A DNA stretch of 64,000 bases, from positions 5,194 to 69,193 of the forward strand of contig CAZNNT010000001.1 in NCBI GenBank assembly GCA_964574495.1, given 5' to 3'. Shown here one piece after another: positions 8,383-50,502 of this stretch. A model generated the notes under the pieces. It did not search any database. It saw nothing but the letters and a program-made list of their open reading frames with translations, and had not been told where the DNA came from. Within the stretch, counting starts at the first letter, position 1; each line of letters starts with the position of its first letter. The stretch is from an uncultured Candidatus Saccharibacteria bacterium. GTDB lineage: Bacteria > Patescibacteriota > Minisyncoccia > HO2-45-28. Position numbers and translations under genes: made by a program.

Positions 8383-9447
8383 TTATGTTTCTCTAATTAT
8401 TCTGGACACCGCGAGCTCCAGAGGCAGTTCGCGATGCGAAGAGTAAAAACGGGCGCTTGCGGTATCAAGCAGAACTAAAAGAACGCGCTCAAGGCGATCG
8501 GCCGTAAAATTCGGGATTTCGGGGCCTCCGCCCAAAACACCAAGAAATTTATTCCTGAAATCGTGTATTAAAATTTTCATAAAGACATTGGGTTCAACCC
8601 CGCTTTTTAAAGACCCGCGCACACATTCAAAAGCCGATTTAAAATCCTTCGCGCCGACTGCTAAAACCAGTTCATTTACAGCGTTTTCAGCGGGAGCTCC
8701 AAAAAAGTCGCGCACATCCTCGGCTTTTATCAACTTGGACTTCGCGCCCGCCAAAACCGAAACCTGCTCCAAAAGATTAAGAGCATCACGCAAAGAACCG
8801 TCGGAAAAAAGCGCGAGTATGCGGGCGGCTTCCGGCTCAATTTCAAAACTCTCGGACCTGCCCACTTTAGAAATGACCGCGCCCGCAACTTCCTCAGGCA
8901 GGCGCCTGAATCTCAAATGCTGGCATCTTGAGATTATGGTTTCCGGCACTTTTTCGGGCTCGGTCGTCGCCAGCATAAAAATAAGATGTTCGGGCGGCTC
9001 CTCAAGCGTTTTTAAAAGGGCGTTTGAGGCCTCTTTAGTCAGCATGTGAACTTCATCAATGATATAAACTTTACGTCTGGCCGAAACCGGCAGGAACGAG
9101 GCGGCGTCTCGAATCGCTCGGATTTCATCAATTCCTCGGTTTGAAGCGGCGTCAATTTCAATCAAATCCAGAGTGCGGCCGGAAATAAATTCTGAACAAA
9201 CATGGCAATTATTGCATGGGGCAGACAATCCATCAGAAATTTTGGCTAAATTGGCGCAATTGATGGCGCGGGCAAGAATGCGGGCAACACTAGTTTTTCC
9301 GGTGCCCCTGGGCCCCGAAAAAAGATAAGCGTGGGCTACGCGATTCAGTGTCAGAGCGTTTTTTAAAATCTTAACCACATGAGGTTGCCCCGCGACTTCA
9401 TCTAAGTTTTTCGGCCGATATTTTCTGTATAAAACCGCGTCGGTCAT
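8383..9447 (-). CDS. dnaX: DNA polymerase III subunit gamma/tau (short form)
   Basis: Walker A GPRGTGKTS; zinc-module cysteines CANLAKISDGLSAPCNNCHVC; box II IIDEVHML; sensor SRC motif; 354 aa. Confidence 0.9.
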   Translation of the reverse strand: MTDAVLYRKYRPKNLDEVAGQPHVVKILKNALTLNRVAHAYLFSGPRGTGKTSVARILARAINCANLAKISDGLSAPCNNCHVCSEFISGRTLDLIEIDAASNRGIDEIRAIRDAASFLPVSARRKVYIIDEVHMLTKEASNALLKTLEEPPEHLIFMLATTEPEKVPETIISRCQHLRFRRLPEEVAGAVISKVGRSESFEIEPEAARILALFSDGSLRDALNLLEQVSVLAGAKSKLIKAEDVRDFFGAPAENAVNELVLAVGAKDFKSAFECVRGSLKSGVEPNVFMKILIHDFRNKFLGVLGGGPEIPNFTADRLERVLLVLLDTASARFYSSHRELPLELAVSRIIRET

Positions 9448-10686: not shown

Positions 10687-12072
10687 CTAGGGAGCCGGAA
10701 CCATCCCCTGAAGCCAAAATGGAGCATTTTGGTCAATTGGCGCAGGAGTTGGCGGAGGTGTATAGACATTAGCCGAACCCGGGGTAGCCGGAGTCAGTTG
10801 CAACCAGAATGGAACCGGCGCAGGAGCGGCTGGAGCCGGGGTTGGAGCGGGAGTTACGGCGGGCGCTGGCGTTACTTCCGGTGTTACGGCCGGAGTTACT
10901 GGAGCGGCTGGAACCGCCGCGGCTCCAAACACTTCAGCCAGTTTCGCTCTTGTTTTCGGCCCGACAAATCCGTATCCGGCATCGCCTGCTTTGGCTACGC
11001 CATATTTAACCTGGAATTTTTCAACGGCGCGGGTTGTAAGAGAGCCGAAAAATTCTGTTTCATTTCCTGCTGAACCCACACCAGATGAAGCAATCGCCGT
11101 ATCGGCATCGGAGTTAAGCAATTGCTGGATACGCTTAACATCTTCTCCTTTTGAACCAATCGTGAGAGCGCGGTTAAAGACAGGGCTGACCGCGGCAGCG
11201 ACCGGCGAGGGTGCGGCCGGCACTACCGGCAACTCTGGAGCCGCCGGAGCCGCGGCCTCTGCAAACACTTCAGCCAGTTTCGCTCTGGTTTTCGGCCCGA
11301 CAAGTCCGTATCCGGCATCGCCTGCTTGAGCTACGCCATATTTAACCTGGAATTTTTGGACGGCTTTTTCAGAAAGCGAACCGAAGAATTCGGTTTCATT
11401 TCCTGGAGAACCAACGCCTGACGCCGCAATTACGGTGTCAGAATCAGAGTTTAACAACTGTTGAAGGCGCTTAACGTCTTCACCTTTAGAACCGATGGTT
11501 AAAGCCCTATTAAAAGCTGGGCTTACAGCCAATGCCTGGGCTGATGGCTGGGCCGCTGACGACGGAACCGCGGGTGTAGCCGGCGTTACGGTCGGTACTG
11601 CGGGTACAGCCGCAACTGCTGCGGTCTGCGAGGGAATGCTCGGCGCGCTACTTCCTCCGCCACCCCCTCCTCCGCCACCGCCTCCTCCGCCACCGCCTCC
11701 GGCAGCGCAGGTATCAGCTGAAACACTTATAGTGGAAGTTCCGAAAGGCGCGTTAGTCGGGTTGGTAACAGTTATTTTTGAACTACTGGTGGTGCAGGAA
11801 AACCCGGCCGTAATTGACCCGACTACCGTGGCGGTCAGTTTTCTGCGATTAGTTGAAGTAACTTCATAGCTTGCCCCCGGCGACATACCGACATCAAAAG
11901 AAGTGGAATTCACATCAATGTAATCGGCGTTAAAACCCGTGCCCGTAACATTTAAAGTTACGCTATTAACATCTAGATCAACATTAGTGTCAAAAGTAAA
12001 GTCGCCCAAAGCGGCCAACGCGAACATCGGTATAAAGCTGGCAGTTAAAATCGTTAGATAGATTTTTTTCAT
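10687..12072 (-). CDS. Secreted low-complexity protein with two peptidoglycan-binding-like (PG_binding_1-type) repeats and a 16-residue poly-Gly tract
   Basis: N-terminal signal/anchor (MKKIYLTILTASFIPMFALAA). Two ~115-aa repeats contain FNRALTIGSKGEDVKR(L/I)QQLLNSD ... KFQVKYGVA(Q/K)AGDAGYG(L/F)VGPKTRAKLAEVF. Pro/Ala-rich linkers and a G16 stretch are present. Confidence 0.6.
   Translation of the reverse strand: MKKIYLTILTASFIPMFALAALGDFTFDTNVDLDVNSVTLNVTGTGFNADYIDVNSTSFDVGMSPGASYEVTSTNRRKLTATVVGSITAGFSCTTSSSKITVTNPTNAPFGTSTISVSADTCAAGGGGGGGGGGGGGGGGSSAPSIPSQTAAVAAVPAVPTVTPATPAVPSSAAQPSAQALAVSPAFNRALTIGSKGEDVKRLQQLLNSDSDTVIAASGVGSPGNETEFFGSLSEKAVQKFQVKYGVAQAGDAGYGLVGPKTRAKLAEVFAEAAAPAAPELPVVPAAPSPVAAAVSPVFNRALTIGSKGEDVKRIQQLLNSDADTAIASSGVGSAGNETEFFGSLTTRAVEKFQVKYGVAKAGDAGYGFVGPKTRAKLAEVFGAAAVPAAPVTPAVTPEVTPAPAVTPAPTPAPAAPAPVPFWLQLTPATPGSANVYTPPPTPAPIDQNAPFWLQGMVPAP
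10920..11600. repeat. Two tandem ~345-bp intragenic repeats encoding the PG-binding-like modules
   Basis: A near-identical DNA segment (cttcagccagtttcgctct.gttttcggcccgacaa.tccgtatccggcatcgcctgct...) occurs at about 10935-11040 and 11270-11375, with flanking similarity. Confidence 0.6.
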
Positions 12073-12106: not shown

Positions 12107-12922
12107 TTATCGCGTTGCCCAAAAGTTAAGAGTGCCCCGTGGAGTAAAGGCGGCGCCGGCAAGATTGGTCAATTCAACTCCAATGGTTGCCGAACCCGTG
12201 GATGAAGCGCTGGCAATTACCATACCTACGTTATTAGGAGTGGCAGCTACAATCAGCGAGCTTGTCGCCTGAACAAAAACTCGGGTAAAGCTTGTAGTTA
12301 TTCCCGTGGCGCCAGAGCAAATAATGCCTGTTGTTGTGGTTGCAGGTATAGAAATCTGCGCGAGGTTGCAAGTTCCGAAAACCATACTTGTCAAAGCGGT
12401 TCCATCGCCAACCGTTAAAGTACCTTTCGTCGCAAAGTCGCCGTTTGAGCCGGTTGTGGTCGCAAAGCCGTTAACATATAAATTTTTGCCGACCTCAAAC
12501 TCATTCGTTGTGGAAGCGTTGCCGGTGATGATAATGTTGTCAACCGCGGCATTGCCCAAAGTGACATTGCCGTTAAGATTTGAGGCTCCGGTCACAGTCA
12601 AAGTGCCCGCAGTCTCAAAATTTCCGTTCGCGCCTGTTGTAGTGGCAAAACCGTTAACATAAAAGTTGCTGCCGACCTCAAATTCATTCGTTGTTGAAGC
12701 GTTGCCGGTGATGATAATGTTATCAGCCGCGGCATCGCCCAAAGTTACATTGCCATTTAAAGTCGTGGCTCCGGAAGCCGTAAGCGTCCCGCCCGTGTTA
12801 ACGTTTGAACCAATAGTGGTTACGCCGTAAGTGGTGAGAGCAACCAGTAAAAACGACAAAATTGTCGCCGCAATTATGCCGCTGACCTGACGAGTATCTA
12901 AAAAACTTGAAACCTTTTGCAT
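12107..12922 (-). CDS. Cell-surface tandem-repeat protein (Thr/Gly/Asn-rich, beta-helix/adhesin-like) with an N-terminal membrane anchor
   Basis: N-terminal hydrophobic anchor IIAATILSFLLVALTTYG, then two ~61-aa tandem repeats (TLT..GA..LNGNVTLG.AA.DNIIITGNASTTNEFEVG.N.YVNGFATTTG.NG.F.T.G). Confidence 0.55.
   Translation of the reverse strand: MQKVSSFLDTRQVSGIIAATILSFLLVALTTYGVTTIGSNVNTGGTLTASGATTLNGNVTLGDAAADNIIITGNASTTNEFEVGSNFYVNGFATTTGANGNFETAGTLTVTGASNLNGNVTLGNAAVDNIIITGNASTTNEFEVGKNLYVNGFATTTGSNGDFATKGTLTVGDGTALTSMVFGTCNLAQISIPATTTTGIICSGATGITTSFTRVFVQATSSLIVAATPNNVGMVIASASSTGSATIGVELTNLAGAAFTPRGTLNFWATR
12440..12805. repeat. Two tandem ~183-bp intragenic repeats
   Basis: Near-identical DNA copies (ccgttaacata.aa.tt..tgccgacctcaaa.tcattcgttgt.gaagcgttgccggtgatgataatgtt...) encode the repeated protein module. 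Confidence 0.6.
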
Positions 12923-24325: not shown

Positions 24326-24913
24326 TTATTCGCCTCTAAATTTGTCAACAAAATCCAAAATCCAATTGCATATGAAAAGATGCGCGCTTTCCACGTGGCG
24401 GTATGAATCGGACGGAATGTAAAAATTAATATCGCCCAGTTTCCGCAAAGGATTGTCCTGGCCGAATCCCGACATGGTTACGACGCCCGCGCCCTTGCCC
24501 CGCATTGCGCCAACGGCGTTGATAATGTTTTGCGACTTGCCGGAGCTGGATATGGCAATTAAAAGGTCTTTTTTTGTTCCCAGAATTTTAAGGGGCTGGG
24601 AAAAAATATTTTCATACCCGACATCATTTCCCATACAGGTAAGCAAAGAATGTTCCGTTGGCGAAAAAGCCGCGATGCCGTGCGTCCGCATAAAATCTGT
24701 CGCTTGATGGCTCGCAATGGCGGCGCTTCCGCCGTTGCCAACGAACACAATCCGCCCCCCTTCTTTATTTGCCTGCAAAATTGACTTAATAGAGCCCTTG
24801 ACCGCATCAGCCAGATCCATATCAAAGCCACTCTTGTCCGTTGTTTTAACGCTTCGTAAACACTCTGCGAATCCATCCAGGTATGAGTGCAAATCCTTTT
24901 TACTAAAATCCAT
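24326..24913 (-). CDS. gmhA: SIS-domain sedoheptulose-7-phosphate isomerase (phosphoheptose isomerase)
   Basis: GGRIVFVGNGGSAAIASH SIS motif about 40 aa from the chosen start (MDFSKKDL). About 195 aa. A second SIS-typical ISSSGKSQNIINA segment is present. The longer track ORF would overlap the GT2 gene. Confidence 0.7.
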   Translation of the reverse strand: MDFSKKDLHSYLDGFAECLRSVKTTDKSGFDMDLADAVKGSIKSILQANKEGGRIVFVGNGGSAAIASHQATDFMRTHGIAAFSPTEHSLLTCMGNDVGYENIFSQPLKILGTKKDLLIAISSSGKSQNIINAVGAMRGKGAGVVTMSGFGQDNPLRKLGDINFYIPSDSYRHVESAHLFICNWILDFVDKFRGE

Positions 24914-24924
24914 AATATAAATAA

Positions 24925-25683
24925 TTAAACCGTCGTCCCCGGCTTTTTGTTTCCTGATTTCGAGGGAAAATATACGCGAAAAAATAGTTTTCTCGCAGTG
25001 CCGGCAATTTCCAAAACATTTTTCCATTTTAAAAGTCGTGATTTTCTCAAACCCATTTTTCCATAACCTTGTTCTCTTATATACATCGGCACCTCAATAT
25101 AAGAAGCATTCTTAATTTTAAGCAACTGCACCAATATCTCCATCATAAAAGACGGGCCGTTGCTTGACATCGCGACATTTTCCAAAAGAGGCCTTCTAAA
25201 AAAACATGTTCCGTTAAAATATTTAAGATTGGCGCCGAACATTATATTAAATATCGCGGTGTATGCTAAAGAAAGAATCCTTCGCGAGAACGGCCTAACC
25301 TGCGGGTTTGCGGTATAAGGAATAATAATATCTTTTTGACCGATTTGGCTAAAAATATTATCCATAGTTTCCGAAAGAGTCTCATTGTCCCCCGGAAAAT
25401 ACCCAACATAATTTTTTGAGGATTCTAAAACTCCGCGCCGAAAACAATATCCGATTCCTTGATTTGGATTATTGCGGATTTTCAAAATTCGGCTGTCTTT
25501 GGCGCATAGGCCATCCATAATTTCGCCGGTTCTGTCTTTACTGCCGTCATCAATTAAAATAATTTCAAAGTCGTCAAAACCGTTTTTTTTAAGATGTTCC
25601 GTAACCATGTTCACGGTATCCGGCACATTTTTTTCTTCATTGAGCGCGGGAATAATAACCGATATTGAGGGCTTCAGAGCCAT
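24925..25683 (-). CDS. Family 2 glycosyltransferase (polyprenyl-phosphate sugar transferase/DPM1-like)
   Basis: VIIPALNEE and IILIDDGSKD (DxD context) are typical of GT2_2 enzymes; 252 aa. Confidence 0.75.
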   Translation of the reverse strand: MALKPSISVIIPALNEEKNVPDTVNMVTEHLKKNGFDDFEIILIDDGSKDRTGEIMDGLCAKDSRILKIRNNPNQGIGYCFRRGVLESSKNYVGYFPGDNETLSETMDNIFSQIGQKDIIIPYTANPQVRPFSRRILSLAYTAIFNIMFGANLKYFNGTCFFRRPLLENVAMSSNGPSFMMEILVQLLKIKNASYIEVPMYIREQGYGKMGLRKSRLLKWKNVLEIAGTARKLFFRVYFPSKSGNKKPGTTV

Positions 25684-31331: not shown

Positions 31332-31733
31332 ATGAAAATAGACATGAAGGCAGCAGTTGAACTCATCCGAAAATTAAGTTCTTCGCATAAACCAAAAAGC
31401 AAACAAAGAAAAACCAAAATTACCGGAGCCGCAAAAGAAATGTTGCCGCATATTAAAACTCTGCCGCAAAAAACAATAGAAAAATTTGTCAGAAAAATCG
31501 CCCTAACCGAACCATGGATAGAAATCCACAGCACTAGTATTGCGGTCGCGTACGGTAGTGAAGGACCGATGTTTTTTAGGTGCATCTTCTGTGGCCTTGC
31601 AACCGAGGCACATTTAAACGGTCATTCTATACCTGAATCCAAAATCCGGCATAAAAAAGATTGCCCGCAACGCATGGCCCTGGAAATCATCGGCTTAGTC
31701 CGACGTACACGAAACACGCATACACGAGTCTGA
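31332..31733 (+). CDS. Hypothetical small protein (133 aa) with a CxxC pair
   Basis: Strong SD ACAAGGAGGCAAAAT before the ATG. FRCIFCGL ... KKDCPQ cysteines. Its stop codon lies inside the solo REP-like palindrome. Alternative antisense ORFs lack an SD. Confidence 0.4.
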   Translation: MKIDMKAAVELIRKLSSSHKPKSKQRKTKITGAAKEMLPHIKTLPQKTIEKFVRKIALTEPWIEIHSTSIAVAYGSEGPMFFRCIFCGLATEAHLNGHSIPESKIRHKKDCPQRMALEIIGLVRRTRNTHTRV

Positions 31734-31739
31734 CTTGTG
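31723..31739. repeat. Solo REP-like 17-bp palindrome (CACGAGTCTGACTTGTG), one mismatch from the RAYT-flanking copies
   Basis: Matches CACAAGTC-T-GACTTGTG at 48531 and 49305 except A to G at position 4. Confidence 0.6.
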
Positions 31740-31772
31740 TATCACGCCTCGGCGATTTGTTGCCGGGGTTTT

Positions 31773-32891
31773 TTATGTGCTATTTTTTACCATTTCGGCC
31801 AATCTCTGGCAAATATATTCAATATCCGATTTTTCAAGGCCGATATAAAAAGGCAGGGCGATTGATGAAGAACTGATTGATTCCGAAACCGGAAAATCGC
31901 CCTCGCGAAACCCGAAGGCCTTACGATAAAAATCAAAAAGATGGATTGAGGGCAAATAGGGCTTGGTTGAAATGCCGAGACCGGCTAATTTTTTAATGAC
32001 TCCGTCGCGGTCCGCTCCCGTCTTAATTCTCGCGACATAAACGAACCAGGAATGGGTATTATCGGGATGAATTTCGGGAGCCGAAATCGTTTCGCCGTAT
32101 TTTCCCAATTCTTCCGAATACCATGAAGCGATTTTTCGCCGCTCCTCTATAATTTTGGGGAGTTTTTTAAGCTGAACGATTCCCAAAGCCGCGCTTAACT
32201 CATTCATCCGGTAGTTATAGCCGAGCCGTTCGTGGTCAAGCCATTGCATATTTTCGGAACGACCTTGATTACGCAAAGACCGACAAAGGGCGTCAATCTT
32301 TTGGTCATTGGTCGTAATGACGCCGCCTTCGGTGGTGGTCATTTGCTTATTGGGATAAAAAGAAAACACCGCGGCGTCGCCGAAAGTTCCGACTTTTTTA
32401 TTTTTATGTTCGGCCATAATGCTTTCACAAGCGTCTTCCACGACTACCAGAGCGTGTTTTTTGGCAAATGCCGTTATCGGGTCCATATCGCAGGATTGGC
32501 CGAAAATATGCACCGGCAAAATCGCTTTTGTTTTGGATGTTATTTTTTTCTCAACTTCTTTGGGGTCAATATTAAAAGTGAGCGGATTGATATCGGCAAA
32601 AACCGGCTTCGCGCCAACATATAAAATCGCGTTGGCTGACGCAATAAAAGAAAAAGGCGAGGTTATAACTTCGTCTCCCGCTTTTATGCCGGAGGCGATT
32701 AAAGCCAGGTGCAGCCCGGCCGTTCCGCTTGAAACCGCGCAGGCGTAATCGGAACCGATGAGTTTAGCGAATTTATTCTCAAACTCCTCTATTTTCGGGC
32801 CGATGCTTAAAACGCCGGAACGCAAAACTTCCAGAATAATTTTTTCTTCTTCTTCGTCAAAATGCGGTTTTGCCATTGGATATTTCGGCAT
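31773..32891 (-). CDS. DegT/DnrJ-family PLP-dependent aminotransferase (PseC/LegC/PglE-like nonulosonate-pathway transaminase)
   Basis: DegT-type N-terminus (KIILEVLRSGVLSIGPKIEEFENKFAKLIGSDYACAVSSGTAGLHLAL); 372 aa; operon position next to the PseB-like gene. Confidence 0.8.
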   Translation of the reverse strand: MPKYPMAKPHFDEEEEKIILEVLRSGVLSIGPKIEEFENKFAKLIGSDYACAVSSGTAGLHLALIASGIKAGDEVITSPFSFIASANAILYVGAKPVFADINPLTFNIDPKEVEKKITSKTKAILPVHIFGQSCDMDPITAFAKKHALVVVEDACESIMAEHKNKKVGTFGDAAVFSFYPNKQMTTTEGGVITTNDQKIDALCRSLRNQGRSENMQWLDHERLGYNYRMNELSAALGIVQLKKLPKIIEERRKIASWYSEELGKYGETISAPEIHPDNTHSWFVYVARIKTGADRDGVIKKLAGLGISTKPYLPSIHLFDFYRKAFGFREGDFPVSESISSSSIALPFYIGLEKSDIEYICQRLAEMVKNST

Positions 32892-47232: not shown

Positions 47233-47991
47233 ATGGAACGGGAATATCCGGATTTAACGCAAAAAATATCAGGCATACAAGGATGCGTCTCAACAAAAGA
47301 AGCCGTATTTCTTTATGAAGCGGCAAGAAATTGCGGAAATGGCGTAATAGTGGAACTCGGCTCGTGGAAGGGCAAATCAACAATCTGCCTCGGGCTTGGT
47401 TCAAAAAACGGACGGGGCGTCAAGGTCTACGCCGTTGACCCGCATAGCGGGAGTCCGGACCAAAAGGGATTTGAAAAAGAAAACACATTTGAAGAATTCA
47501 AGAAAAATATTAAAAACGCGGGGCTTGAGAATATAGTTGAACCGATTGTTTCCACCTCTTTTGAAGCCGCAAAAACATGGGACAAGCTGGCGGGCCTTAT
47601 ATTCGTGGACGCGAATTATCACGACTATGAAAACACAAAAAAAGATTTTTTCCAGTGGTCAAAATATTTAATTGACGGCGGCATCTACGCGCTCCATAAC
47701 ACCGTGCCGTCGGTTTCCGGAATCTTGGAAGGAATTCCGCTTCACGGATGCGAAGCGCCCCGCAAATTTATGAATGATTTTATTTTTGGCTCTAAAAATT
47801 TCAAAGTGTTGAAAATCCAAGGCACGATAACCGCGATACAAAAATTAGAAAAATTGTCGCTTTTAGACAAAATAAAAAATAGGGCCGCCGAAATCAAAAG
47901 CGCCCTATCTTACTCAAACCATAAAATCTATTTAGCCCTAGCTTCCCTGCCGCCATCAATAAAAAAACCAATAAAGACCCTCTTCAACTAG
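47233..47991 (+). CDS. Class I SAM-dependent methyltransferase (Methyltransf_24-like, sugar/macrolide O-methyltransferase type)
   Basis: VIVELGSWKGKST (motif I) and VDANYHDYENT (acidic motif) resemble TylF/MycF-like glycan O-MTases. 252 aa. Confidence 0.6.
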   Translation: MEREYPDLTQKISGIQGCVSTKEAVFLYEAARNCGNGVIVELGSWKGKSTICLGLGSKNGRGVKVYAVDPHSGSPDQKGFEKENTFEEFKKNIKNAGLENIVEPIVSTSFEAAKTWDKLAGLIFVDANYHDYENTKKDFFQWSKYLIDGGIYALHNTVPSVSGILEGIPLHGCEAPRKFMNDFIFGSKNFKVLKIQGTITAIQKLEKLSLLDKIKNRAAEIKSALSYSNHKIYLALASLPPSIKKPIKTLFN

Positions 47992-48415
47992 GAATCGGTG
48001 GGAGCGAAATTTTTTCATGTGGGTCACTCGAAGGATACGCGTCAATGGCCCCCGGAGCCGATTTTACTATTGGACGATCGCCGAAATCCCTATCCCAATC
48101 CGCACACGCTCTTGCGTGAGCCATTAATGCCCGGGGAAGTGTCTGCTGGTAGCGACGTTTTATACCTCTAAATGCCGATAAGGCTTTCTGTCTCGTTTCA
48201 TAAAACCGAATCTGTTCGGTTCTTGTCCGATAAACAACAGCATCTTTAACCCCCCTTGGCGTCGCAACACAATCATCCGGATACATCCTTGAAAACGGCC
48301 ACTCCAATTTCAATAATTTTGTTGTTTTATTATAAGATAAAACCCTGGCAACTATAGCGTACTCCTTGTGTTCGTGCTGCATCAAAACGAAGCGCTTTCT
48401 TTCTCTACTCGTCAT
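47984..48415 (-). CDS. Hypothetical protein (143 aa); appears GC-rich; next to the RAYT element
   Basis: Strong SD GGGGGAAGGAGGTTTCAGC before the ATG at 48415. Basic, no recognised motif. Composition looks distinct from its neighbours. Confidence 0.45.
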   Translation of the reverse strand: MTSRERKRFVLMQHEHKEYAIVARVLSYNKTTKLLKLEWPFSRMYPDDCVATPRGVKDAVVYRTRTEQIRFYETRQKALSAFRGIKRRYQQTLPRALMAHARACADWDRDFGDRPIVKSAPGAIDAYPSSDPHEKISLPPIPS

Positions 48416-48530
48416 GCTGAAACCTCCTTCCCCCTCGGGTTAACTACCTCCTCACTGATTTCAAGGAGCCTAAATCGCAACCTAGCACATTTTAATAATT
48501 ATGTAAAGTAAAGCCCATCAACCCATCATA

Positions 48531-49321
48531 CACAAGTCTGACTTGTGGTTTACCAATCTTCTAAAAGAAACTGCGCTACGTCTTCTCTCTTTTCCGCGTG
48601 CGATATCAACATGTCGCGCGCGGCTTGTTTGAAATCGGCGTCTGGCAAACCAAGATCTGCGAATACTTTTGCGTCAATAATTGGCGACAATTTACCAAAT
48701 GCCGCTGTTTGAAAACTGGAAAATGAGTAAGTTTTCGCCCATTCCCATGCTTTGTTAAATTCTTTGACAGCTTTTGCGAAACCGCCGGGATAAAGCTCAA
48801 ATACGTTTTTCACAACAATATAAGCCAGAATATAGTTTAGATCTGCGTCATCATGTATAGTACGACTTTTATAGGAACCCTGAAAAATGCTTCCTTTTTC
48901 ATTGTATTTTTCATTAAAAGACAGGGTCATGCTCCCGCATAAACGTTGTAAAAACTTAGAAATTCCTCCCTCATGAATTTCGTAAAGCAACAAATGAAAA
49001 TGATTTGGCATTAGTGTCCACGCCAATACCGCCGCCAGAGGATCACGCTCTGGCCAATGTTCCGACCGCGAAAAAAGTGGCAAATCTTGTTCATCTTTTG
49101 TCCAATTGCGATTTTGAAAATCATCATTAAGAAGATAAAGCGTTTTGACATAACGCCAATGATCGGCTTTATCGCGTACAATTTCCATTCCGCGCGCACC
49201 GCGTTTTACAACATGCACAACCGAACCAACCGAAAATGGTTCTACTCTCATATTTACATATGTAACATTATTCTATACATACACAAGTCAGACTTGTGGT
49301 GGTCCACAAGTCTGACTTGTG
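48531..49321 (-). mobile_element. REP/RAYT-type unit: HUH Y1 transposase gene flanked by 17-bp palindromic REP-like sequences (one downstream, an inverted pair upstream)
   Basis: CACAAGTCTGACTTGTG at 48531-48547, CACAAGTCAGACTTGTG at 49282-49298 and CACAAGTCTGACTTGTG at 49305-49321 bracket ORF 48550..49251. A fourth, diverged copy lies at 31723. Confidence 0.65.
48550..49251 (-). CDS. HUH-motif Y1 transposase-like protein (REP-associated tyrosine transposase/IS200-TnpA-like)
   Basis: LMPNHFHLLL is an HUH motif (H-hydrophobic-H in a hydrophobic strand). The downstream tyrosine-rich segment DADLNYILAYIVVKN resembles the Y1 catalytic-Tyr helix. 233 aa. The gene appears AT-rich and is flanked by palindromes. 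Confidence 0.55.
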   Translation of the reverse strand: MRVEPFSVGSVVHVVKRGARGMEIVRDKADHWRYVKTLYLLNDDFQNRNWTKDEQDLPLFSRSEHWPERDPLAAVLAWTLMPNHFHLLLYEIHEGGISKFLQRLCGSMTLSFNEKYNEKGSIFQGSYKSRTIHDDADLNYILAYIVVKNVFELYPGGFAKAVKEFNKAWEWAKTYSFSSFQTAAFGKLSPIIDAKVFADLGLPDADFKQAARDMLISHAEKREDVAQFLLEDW

Positions 49322-50502
49322 GGAAGATTTAAAAGCTTTTCGTTAATTCTTAAAATCTGCTTGCGGTAATTATGGTCGTCATCCGCAAGGCGCAAATAGC
49401 AATTACGCGACAACTCGCTCCTTAATTCGTGATTTGAGCCGAGTTCTTCAATACGGCGGGCGAAACTTTCGTCATCATTGTCTTTGAAATATACCGCGCT
49501 TTTTTGCGACACCCATTCAAGTCCTCCTCCCCCCGGAAGAATTGACGGCAGGCCGAAAGTCATTGCTTCAAGTAAAGAAATGGAAGTCATATCTCCTCGC
49601 CATTTCGGCTGAATAAAAATATCGGCATTTTTATAAAAATCGTAGACCTTTTCTTTTTCCACCCATCCGGGCATAAAAACATATTTCTCTAAATCCAAAT
49701 CGCGAACCATCTTTTTTAATTTTTCTTCCTCGGGTCCGGTTCCACCCAGAATCAGTTTAAAATCACTTTTATTCTTCACTTTGGAAAACGCCGACAAAAG
49801 CAGTTCAAACCCTTTTCCGGGAACCATCCGGCCCGAGTAAAATAAATTTATAACGCCGCCTTTTTTATTTCTCTCTTGATATGAATTTTCAGCGATATTT
49901 AAATCGCGCATCATTTTTTTATAATCGAAACAATCGCCCACAATCAAACTTTTGTCTTTTGTTTTCAAACCAAAATCGGAATAGGCCTTTTTTAAAAACG
50001 GGTTGGTAAAAGTCATTAAATCCAGACCATCCGCAAACGGCATGCCGATATATTTTTCGATAATCCACCGGAGTTTCTTTTTTAAAACGCGCAAATACGC
50101 ACCCTTTTCCATTTTAAATTCCGAAAAAGCGGATGTATTTTGAGGCCATGAGAGCAGTTCGCGGTTAAAGCAGGCCACAACCGGAACTCTGCCTCCGAAT
50201 TTACGATAAACGGAGCCCGCGTAAAAATACTGGCCGTCTATGTAAAAAATATCGGCTTCGCCCGAATAAGCCCTTAAAACCTTAAAAACGCCCTTCTGAA
50301 TGCCAAAAAGCCGCCTTGACTTTATGTCTTTTTCAATCGTATTATAAGGTAAGTTGGAATAATGATTCGCGCCTGAAAAAACAGTGATGACATTAACGTC
50401 GGAGCCCAAATCCAGAAAAGCCCGCGCCCTTAAATCAAGATCGGCCACCGAGCCGCCGGCGCGCTCAAAATTGAGCTTTGAGGTAACAAAATAAATTTTC
50501 AT
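49288..50502 (-). CDS. Family 1 (GT4-type) glycosyltransferase
   Basis: C-terminal GT-B domain with the ExFGxxxxEAM-like motif (SISLLEAMTFGLPSI). 404 aa. The last ~11 codons are encoded by the REP pair. Confidence 0.8.
   Translation of the reverse strand: MKIYFVTSKLNFERAGGSVADLDLRARAFLDLGSDVNVITVFSGANHYSNLPYNTIEKDIKSRRLFGIQKGVFKVLRAYSGEADIFYIDGQYFYAGSVYRKFGGRVPVVACFNRELLSWPQNTSAFSEFKMEKGAYLRVLKKKLRWIIEKYIGMPFADGLDLMTFTNPFLKKAYSDFGLKTKDKSLIVGDCFDYKKMMRDLNIAENSYQERNKKGGVINLFYSGRMVPGKGFELLLSAFSKVKNKSDFKLILGGTGPEEEKLKKMVRDLDLEKYVFMPGWVEKEKVYDFYKNADIFIQPKWRGDMTSISLLEAMTFGLPSILPGGGGLEWVSQKSAVYFKDNDDESFARRIEELGSNHELRSELSRNCYLRLADDDHNYRKQILRINEKLLNLPTSQTCGPPQV

Follow-up and report, generated by a model that had tools for sequence, protein, structure and literature searches.

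A probable REP/RAYT-like module in a CPR genome: one Y1 HUH transposase-like gene and its companion hairpins

The locus described here lies within a 64-kb stretch of DNA, analysed as a whole and referred to below as the window, which is largely a surface-glycan biosynthesis region. A CPR-like host had been raised as a possibility, and the named relatives of its DnaX protein (8383-9447), which belong to the Patescibacteria (Niyogibacteria, Giovannonibacteria, Ryanbacteria and Tagabacteria), point to a CPR bacterium of the Parcubacteria type. The features of interest are listed in Table 1. At their centre is an open reading frame of 233 codons that contains the predicted HUH motif, within PNHFHLLL, and that is the single Y1 gene found in the window by tblastn with its own product. 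As had been claimed, no TnpB-like gene adjoins it. Another ORF of 233 codons, at 24326-25027, was considered as a paralogue and rejected, as its sequence is unrelated and tblastn finds no second Y1 copy.

Table 1. Features of the Y1 locus and of the separate palindrome copy, in window coordinates
Feature	Position	Strand	Remarks
Solo REP copy	31720..31742	.	ATACACGAGTC-T-GACTTGTGTAT; 11-bp stem with one G-T; fold -6.5 kcal/mol
Strain-variable segment, 1,384 bp	47970..49353	.	Replaced by 38 nt in 99%-identical contigs
orf143, hypothetical protein	47984..48415	-	Inside the variable segment
REP-like palindrome, downstream	48531..48547	.	2 nt 3' of the Y1 stop codon
Y1 HUH tyrosine transposase-like gene, 233 aa, RAYT/TnpA_REP-like, CPR-specific clade	48550..49251	-	HuH and candidate Tyr
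REP-like palindrome, start-proximal	49282..49298	.	30 nt upstream of the ATG at 49251; + strand centre A
REPIN-like doublet	49282..49321	.	Arms 49282-49299 and 49304-49321; 18-bp stem, loop TGGT
REP-encoded glycosyltransferase C-terminal tail, PTSQTCGPPQV-stop	49288..49323	-	Stop codon from the REP centre
REP-like palindrome, distal doublet copy	49305..49321	.	+ strand centre T; inverted relative to 49282-49298

The exact 17-mer CACAAGTC[T/A]GACTTGTG occurs once downstream of the Y1 gene and twice upstream, and a copy with one mismatch, CACGAGTCTGACTTGTG, lies at 31723-31739. The original prediction had placed all four correctly; its distance of 3 nt between stop codon and downstream palindrome is actually 2 nt (stop at 48550-48552, palindrome ending at 48547). 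At two mismatches or fewer there are 4 copies in the window against 0.00 expected from 100 dinucleotide shuffles, and a looser scan of the whole 64 kb returned no fifth. The perfect 17-bp palindromes are thus present as described, but a repeat search gives 23 nt, CATA-palindrome-GT, as the true repeat unit, and direct repeats of this unit bracket the gene. We considered CATA as a guide tetranucleotide of the GTAG kind and rejected the idea: it is rather what is left of a longer outer stem, since it is paired both in the solo copy and in a relative with 81% identity, whose stems of 13-14 bp read ATACACAAGTC-W-GACTTGTGTAT. The two upstream palindromes are true inverted copies, as had been proposed, because together they form a perfect 18-bp hairpin and their centres are A and T. 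Folded as DNA, the doublet reaches -21.9 kcal/mol (z = -8.0), and 0 of 200 shuffles were equally stable. The solo copy, about 17 kb from the Y1 gene, occupies a 39-nt gap between the convergent ORFs 31332-31733(+) and 31773-32891(-); the former ends on the TGA of the palindrome centre, in agreement with the claim that this copy sits at the stop of a small ORF. Exact look-ups of proteins encoded around this copy matched no recorded entry. A search of Rfam found no family for the hairpins.

The encoded protein belongs with the Y1 transposases. Residues 74-145 match Y1_Tnp (PF01797) at 34.5 bits (cut-off 23), and the protein combines an HuH motif (N83-H84-F85-H86), a single tyrosine on the helix that follows and a TnpA fold; the candidate catalytic residue is Y144, in Y-I-V-V-K148-N149. 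The expectation of a RAYT profile hit fared less well, as NF047646 (REP_Tyr_transpos, NCBIfam) gives 41.4 bits (E 1e-10) against a cut-off of 80, a score by which the protein would be classed as a relative of that model and not as an equivalog. H84, H86, F123, Q124, Y144, K148 and N149 are among the residues invariant in the family, and the consensus around the tyrosine is Y-I-x-V-K-N-V. The tyrosine signature of class-2 TnpA_Y1 proteins, Y-x3-N-P (Quentin et al. 2018, PMC6006769), is absent from the window protein and from its family consensus. In alignments with more canonical relatives, Y144 nevertheless falls on the tyrosine of their YIHLNP/YIERNP motifs, so that Y-x3-N-P has its counterpart here in Y-x3-K-N, and K148-N149 align with N-P in a related CPR clade (clade B) and in L200b. 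The residue four positions after the tyrosine is N in class-2 TnpA_Y1 and Q in IS200, and it is an invariant lysine in the window family. This position supplies the third metal ligand in IS608 structures, and the chemistry of the window family could therefore differ.

The IS200/IS605 group is defined by Y1 transposases whose genes have hairpins on both sides, and the locus might accordingly be read as an autonomous IS200-type element (tnpA only) that transposes as a whole and whose palindromes are its left and right subterminal hairpins. The 23-nt direct repeats around the gene would suit such an element. The protein itself argues against it: with 233 aa it carries extra domains beyond the catalytic core, including a helical C-terminal domain, it does not have the Y-x3-Q motif, and its fold is nearer to TnpA_REP than to the TnpA of IS608 or IS200. 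By sequence, a profile of 31 homologues compared with the PDB matched ISDra2 TnpA alone (E 0.1). Searches of PHROG and PADLOC returned no phage or defence matches and so give no link to either, and IMG/VR holds zero relatives of the protein and just 3 palindrome copies, so that a viral vehicle is not evident.

Homologues are widespread. More than 815 relatives (90%-identity clusters) align over their full length at 50-81% identity, and at the level of 50%-identity clusters there are 42 with E <= 1e-30. Named homologues come from Parcubacteria, Wolfebacteria, Kaiserbacteria and Pacebacteria, and in some annotation pipelines homologues already go under 'RayT' or 'transposase'. A protein-based metagenome scan yielded 80 independent loci, and the addition of others raised this to about 90, of which 88 were scored for flanking hairpins. 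An upstream hairpin is present in 72 of the 88, its foot a median of 25 nt from the ATG, and a downstream hairpin in 68, a median of 2 nt past the stop codon. Doublets are present in many related loci, and the architecture of the window's doublet recurs beside the homologues in eight. Across these loci the apex of the hairpin is conserved as (A/G)GTC-N-GAC(T/C), or in detail, after A/G and A, G-T-C/T, N and G/A-A-C. Beyond the fifth pair the stem varies with the lineage (CACAAGTC, GGAAGTC, TACCGAAGT, GGGAAGGTC, TAAAGAGGT and others); its length is 8-14 bp in the window and related loci, and its outer 3-7 pairs vary through compensatory substitutions. Stem positions 7-10 from the centre, which played no part in the selection of sites, are Watson-Crick paired in 83-97% of cases, with all four pair types represented, compared with 32-45% in shuffled sequence, which indicates that pairing and not sequence is selected there. 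At the centre, T prevails in upstream hairpins and A in downstream ones (odds ratio 3.8, p = 1e-4), so that flanking copies tend to be inverted relative to each other. No conserved tag was found outside the stem: the GT[AG]G (or CGTC) foot is absent, and conservation is found instead in the apex, AAGTC-N-GACTT. In more distant homologues, the upstream and downstream sites are occupied by wholly different palindromes, which implies that gene and hairpin form cognate pairs. Retention of the Y1 fold, the HuH histidines and the tyrosine is accompanied, across the CPR, by hairpins that are a position-fixed companion of the Y1 gene.

These data dispose of one alternative, in which the palindromes arise from chance or base composition and the ORF is the remnant of a decayed transposase. 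Apart from the low copy number in the window, nothing speaks for it, and we regard it as refuted, because the chance expectation for the palindromes in the window is 0, the ORF is intact and the hairpins are family-wide. The ORF is full-length, contains all 31 family-invariant residues and has a confident fold, and the arrangement is repeated in about 90 independent loci.

The constancy of the hairpin positions, the -10-like TATAAT boxes that many loci have between hairpin and ATG, the small number of solo copies and the placement of the window's solo copy in a gap between converging genes, the kind of site at which one expects a terminator, are all compatible with hairpins that act only as cis signals. 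Under such an explanation, they would be promoter operators and 3' terminators or stabilisers that are not mobilised, and scattered copies would be unrelated terminators or relics. Several observations make this improbable. The hairpins are not followed by a T-tract, and a terminator scan called none of them. The 488 kb of the loci selected by protein homology contain 18 solo hairpins at over 300 nt from the nearest Y1 gene, where 0.03 were expected; they share the same specific apex and are 600-fold above chance. Doublets occur in frame inside topA, gatB and mnmA and also within the Y1 gene itself, and hairpin pairs flank toxin-antitoxin genes. In-frame copies in the Y1 gene are found in 11 of 89 loci of the window family (at residues about 55-64 and about 187) and in 5 of 5 members of the related CPR clade (after the HuH strand), where they encode the peptide HKSDL[W/C]. 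The flanking and internal hairpins of one locus share their outer stem, which implies copying or conversion.

Dispersal extends well beyond the neighbourhood of Y1 genes. Among the matches listed, the exact 17-mer is present in more than 115 GTDB species-representative stretches, most of them labelled as CPR (Saccharibacteria, Kaiser-, Nomura- and Campbellbacteria, Paceibacterota), and just about 18 of those listed adjoin a Y1 homologue. About 52% of the listed copies are intergenic and another 12% seem genic merely through a TTG or GTG start that the palindrome itself supplies, so that effectively about 65% of those listed are intergenic, compared with about 13% non-coding sequence. Solo hairpins reach a density of about 1 per 27 kb in the related loci, and the window has 1 in 64 kb; from 18 in 488 kb and 1 in 64 kb we estimate, indirectly, tens of copies at most per 1-Mb genome. 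Classical REPs typically have tens to hundreds of copies. The low number counts against a REPtron-like interpretation, as does the finding that many solo hairpins have an outer stem unlike that of the gene-flanking hairpins in the same locus.

The genomic context bears on how the module is inherited. In at least 13 loci, the Y1 gene lies between an SLT-like gene (upstream) and rpmE-prfA (downstream), and in 10 further loci between the gene of an S1 protein and pth. In the rpmE-prfA group, identities between Y1 proteins rise with those between the PrfA proteins of the loci (Spearman 0.71, the pairs not being independent), and some discordant pairs suggest allelic exchange. RAYT inheritance in general is predominantly vertical (Bertels 2017, PMC5581495). 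This conserved synteny among housekeeping genes, maintained over 65-100% Y1 identity, is difficult to reconcile with an IS200-type element that transposes as a unit, and so are the single copy in 64 kb, the restriction of each 90%-identity Y1 cluster to 1-2 contigs and the presence of solo hairpins and doublets away from any Y1 gene. Where two Y1 genes occur in one genome or locus, they are diverged paralogues. Movement of the whole unit would, on the other hand, account for the closest homologues (81%, 69% and 62% identity) lying in differing genomic contexts and for the presence or absence of the module between strains that are 99% identical.

That difference between strains can be traced to the 1.4-kb segment in Table 1, which, besides the diverged last 12 codons of a glycosyltransferase gene, carries the Y1 gene with the REPs on either side of it (doublet upstream, one copy downstream) and orf143. 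Two Logan contigs match the window at 51278-49354 (98.9-99.2%) and at 47969-44000 (99.6-99.7%) with the segment missing, and a third, more diverged contig (85% and 75% identity) likewise has no segment. By sequencing run, the module is present in SRR4343428/30 and absent from SRR12113431/33. The module is therefore strain-variable and is part of the flexible genome here. Absence from strains that are 99% identical is unlike what is expected of a gene long domesticated at this site, and counts against a REPtron-like interpretation. The limits of the segment speak against an insertion sequence, since it is not bounded by the hairpins but reaches 561 bp beyond the downstream one, through the unrelated orf143, and at its other side takes in the diverged end of the neighbouring gene; moreover, no target-site duplication, direct repeats or terminal hairpins were found at the junctions of the indel. 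These properties indicate import by recombination rather than clean Y1 transposition, and most likely the whole module arrived with the 1.4-kb segment by homologous recombination in a variable glycan-biosynthesis locus. With the protein and the context taken together, we consider an autonomous IS200-type element unlikely. orf143 has no match in Pfam, PHROG or PADLOC and only a sub-threshold one in NCBIfam, and was not found beside the closest Y1 homologues.

The import also altered a neighbouring gene product. The glycosyltransferase ORF, 49288-50502(-), runs through the distal REP and ends on a TGA at the centre of the proximal REP. It encodes 404 aa in the window, compared with 394 aa (ending in ...IINDRLKKLL) in homologues with 98% and 88% identity, which fits the gain of a REP-encoded tail and a REP-derived stop as a side effect of the segment's arrival. 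Such hairpins mark gene ends, and when CPR genomes are annotated they can artefactually extend ORFs and introduce stop codons, as in this tail.

The interpretation as a REP/RAYT-like unit is supported by the Y1_Tnp match, the bracketing hairpins, the doublet, the lack of TnpB and the solo copies above chance. We conclude that the locus is probably a REPtron-like module, consisting of one Y1 gene of the TnpA_REP/RAYT kind and its cognate REP-like hairpins. Homology with E. coli TnpA_REP and IS608 TnpA suggests that the protein, as a dimer, would bind a hairpin extruded on single-stranded DNA (the lagging-strand template) and may read the conserved apex instead of a 5' GTAG foot. Cleavage and rejoining nearby would proceed through a 5'-phosphotyrosine on Y144, with H84 and H86 holding the metal, and REP singlets and doublets could thereby be copied or moved at a low rate. 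The hairpins adjacent to the gene would probably have a cis role as well: the upstream one, over the promoter region, in autoregulation, and the downstream one, abutting the stop codon, as a stabiliser or terminator of the 3' end.

A bolder proposal, which we put forward tentatively and hold to be possible but on balance doubtful, is that the CPR-wide family constitutes a distinct and undescribed subclass of TnpA_Y1, with lysine at the metal-ligand position, recognition through the apex and an AAGTC-N-GACTT core kept across class-level CPR lineages and between two Y1 clades that are about 27% identical. In that case, an ancient, low-copy REP/RAYT symbiosis would have been kept in CPR genomes of about 1 Mb, streamlined and host-dependent as these are. 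It would imply a function at the level of the host, for instance in the processing of single-stranded DNA or the regulation of gene ends, and not mere parasitism. Whether REP/RAYT systems persist through domestication or parasitism is a matter of debate. To our knowledge, nearly all characterisation of these systems concerns Proteobacteria, Cyanobacteria and Bacteroidetes, and our literature search found no paper that links REP/RAYT to Patescibacteria or mentions the palindrome in bacteria. A low-copy version in ultra-small CPR genomes, which have little non-coding DNA and in which the hairpins sometimes lie inside essential genes, offers a minimal natural system in which to ask what an enzyme-hairpin pair does for the cell. 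It also presents two testable departures, namely apex-based recognition of the hairpin and a lysine in place of the third metal ligand.

Among known systems, the REPtron of E. coli TnpA_REP/RAYT (PDB 4ER8; Bertels group 2, Quentin subclass 2.2) with its REP/BIME repeats resembles the window module, where one Y1 HUH gene was found in 64 kb: neither has a tnpB, the gene stands between inverted cognate hairpins that include doublets, and further hairpin copies are dispersed between genes. The two proteins share only 13% identity, and the window protein, with its 233 aa and helical C-terminal domain, is longer than the 165 aa of the E. coli enzyme; it has NHFH and Y-x3-K-N where the latter has DHLH and YIHYNP. 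The hairpins differ too, those of the window being perfect palindromes with a conserved apex and without the 5' GT[AG]G tag of E. coli REPs, and the CPR family has an estimated single digits to tens of copies, in a CPR host, compared with hundreds. The module departs from canonical RAYTs in several respects: it falls below the NF047646 cut-off, has no Y-x3-N-P, shows neither the GTAG tag nor, by this estimate, a high copy number, and varies between strains. The estimated copy number is comparable with that of Bertels groups 1 and 4 (12-14) and unlike that of groups 2 and 3 (57-140).

The resemblance to IS200/IS605 TnpA (IS608, ISDra2, IS200) is confined to the catalytic fold, the HuH motif with its tyrosine and the presence of hairpins around the gene. 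The typical core-only TnpA of these elements has about 130-150 aa and Y-x3-Q, unlike the window protein. The window module is present in one copy in the 64 kb, its family has conserved synteny, solo hairpins occur elsewhere, and its own hairpins are perfectly palindromic and identical at both ends; the many near-identical copies and end-bounded insertion that are diagnostic of IS200/IS605 were not found for it.

Quentin subclass 2.4 (Bertels group 4) has REPs in frame inside tnpA_REP, with GT[AG]G or a 'double foot' (PMC6006769), and its flanking 16-mer occurs about 14 times per replicon (Bertels 2017, PMC5581495). In-frame REPs within the Y1 gene are common to both, as is, by the estimate given above, a low frequency of the flanking 16-mer, whereas the insertion sites differ and the taxa of that subclass are Cyanobacteria and Bacteroidetes. 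Subclass 2.1 (Bertels group 1) is described as having a median length of 238 aa, NH[YF]H, FQ instead of WQ and an extra C-terminal domain (PMC6006769). By the published motif table, the window family is alike in length, HuH, FQ and extra C-terminal domain, and the related CPR clade (27-31% identity) has the exact motif of this subclass, Y[IV]HLNP. It is unlike the subclass in having K-N for N-P after the tyrosine and in its nearly universal hairpins, as no REP-like sequences were reported for subclass 2.1 (Quentin 2018, PMC6006769). As a lead drawn from this comparison of published motifs alone, Quentin subclass 2.1, or Bertels group 1, appears to be the nearest described relative of the window family.

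The CACAAGTC palindrome that accompanies the first Y1 family also flanks the genes of a second Y1 clade, which is set at 27-31% identity and carries the canonical YIHLNP motif. All five members of this clade retain a perfect, in-frame internal copy of the palindrome directly after the HuH strand, where it encodes the peptide HKSDL[W/C]; one of the five returned no Pfam match at E ≤ 0.001. REPIN-like doublets, that is, two inverted REPs of the same palindrome as in the window, were also observed deep within essential genes of other CPR genomes, with the reading frame kept.

Pairs of this palindrome were additionally found to bracket toxin-antitoxin genes, in place of a Y1 gene, in two Paceibacterota-type MAGs. 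The flanked genes are a PemK/MazF-like toxin, and HicA with a HicB-like partner. Each palindrome at these loci has a common flank of about 20 nt, TAGTGCTGGACTAATTCAGC, and the enclosed genes may represent REP-bounded cargo.

Coordinates of the features described, in the window or within other loci (L-numbers)
Feature	Location	Strand	Remark
orf143	window 47984-48415	-	inside the strain-variable segment
Methyltransferase gene	window 47233-47991	+	borders the variable segment
Glycosyltransferase gene	window 49288-50502	-	borders the variable segment
Tandem direct repeat	window 10899-11529		within ORF 10687-12072
Tandem direct repeat	window 12411-12776		within an ORF
REPIN-like doublet	L084:5285-5323		in frame, topA (756 aa)
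REPIN-like doublet	L099:5322-5364		in frame, gatB (494 aa)
REPIN-like doublet	L111:7618-7660		in frame, mnmA-type tRNA methyltransferase gene (373 aa)
Palindrome-flanked toxin-antitoxin locus	L036:47-873
Palindrome-flanked toxin-antitoxin locus	L055:14-930
Second Y1 clade	L033, L046, L066, L069, L070		example L066:1724-2422
ATTCGGACGT-YSR-ACGTCCGAAT cluster	L034:2144-4340		seven copies
ATTCGGACGT-YSR-ACGTCCGAAT copy	L059:4677		eighth copy
Y1 paralogue	L200:1892-2482		196 aa

Within the window, the C-termini of both genes bordering the variable segment differ from those of the 99%-identical “empty” allele, in which 38 nt replace the segment. The methyltransferase has 252 aa and ends in ...KKPIKTLFN, compared with 255 aa and ...KKPLKAIFSGGH in the empty allele, and the glycosyltransferase has 404 aa versus 394. 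The two convergent genes share a 29-nt overlap in the empty allele; in the window, orf143 and the convergent methyltransferase gene have 8 nt in common, at the 3' end of the latter. Pfam, PHROGs and PADLOC assigned no family to orf143, and its NCBIfam match was sub-threshold only. Elsewhere in the window, ORFs contain long tandem direct repeats, with a 336-nt period (74-90% identity) and a 183-nt unit (81%), which probably correspond to repeated protein domains; the ORF holding the first carries a peptidoglycan-binding domain.

Other repeats were also detected. One non-CPR chromosome, OZ242267.1, from a Gammaproteobacteria MAG, carries AAT/CAT-CACAAGTCGGACTTGTG-ATA three times or more (L011, L024 and L049); this number exceeds chance for a 2-Mb genome, and the copies may belong to an unrelated repeat family. 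A different palindrome, ATTCGGACGT-YSR-ACGTCCGAAT, forms a cluster of seven copies, 2.2 kb across, about a distant Y1 homologue and recurs on a separate contig of the same MAG. Solo CACAAGTC copies are also present in this MAG, and therefore two REP families occur in one CPR genome. Finally, a Y1 paralogue whose flanks showed no palindrome with a stem of 8 bp or more lies 8 kb from the family member on the same contig (L200) and scores 73.9 bits against the curated RAYT model NCBIfam REP_Tyr_transpos, slightly below its cut-off of 80.
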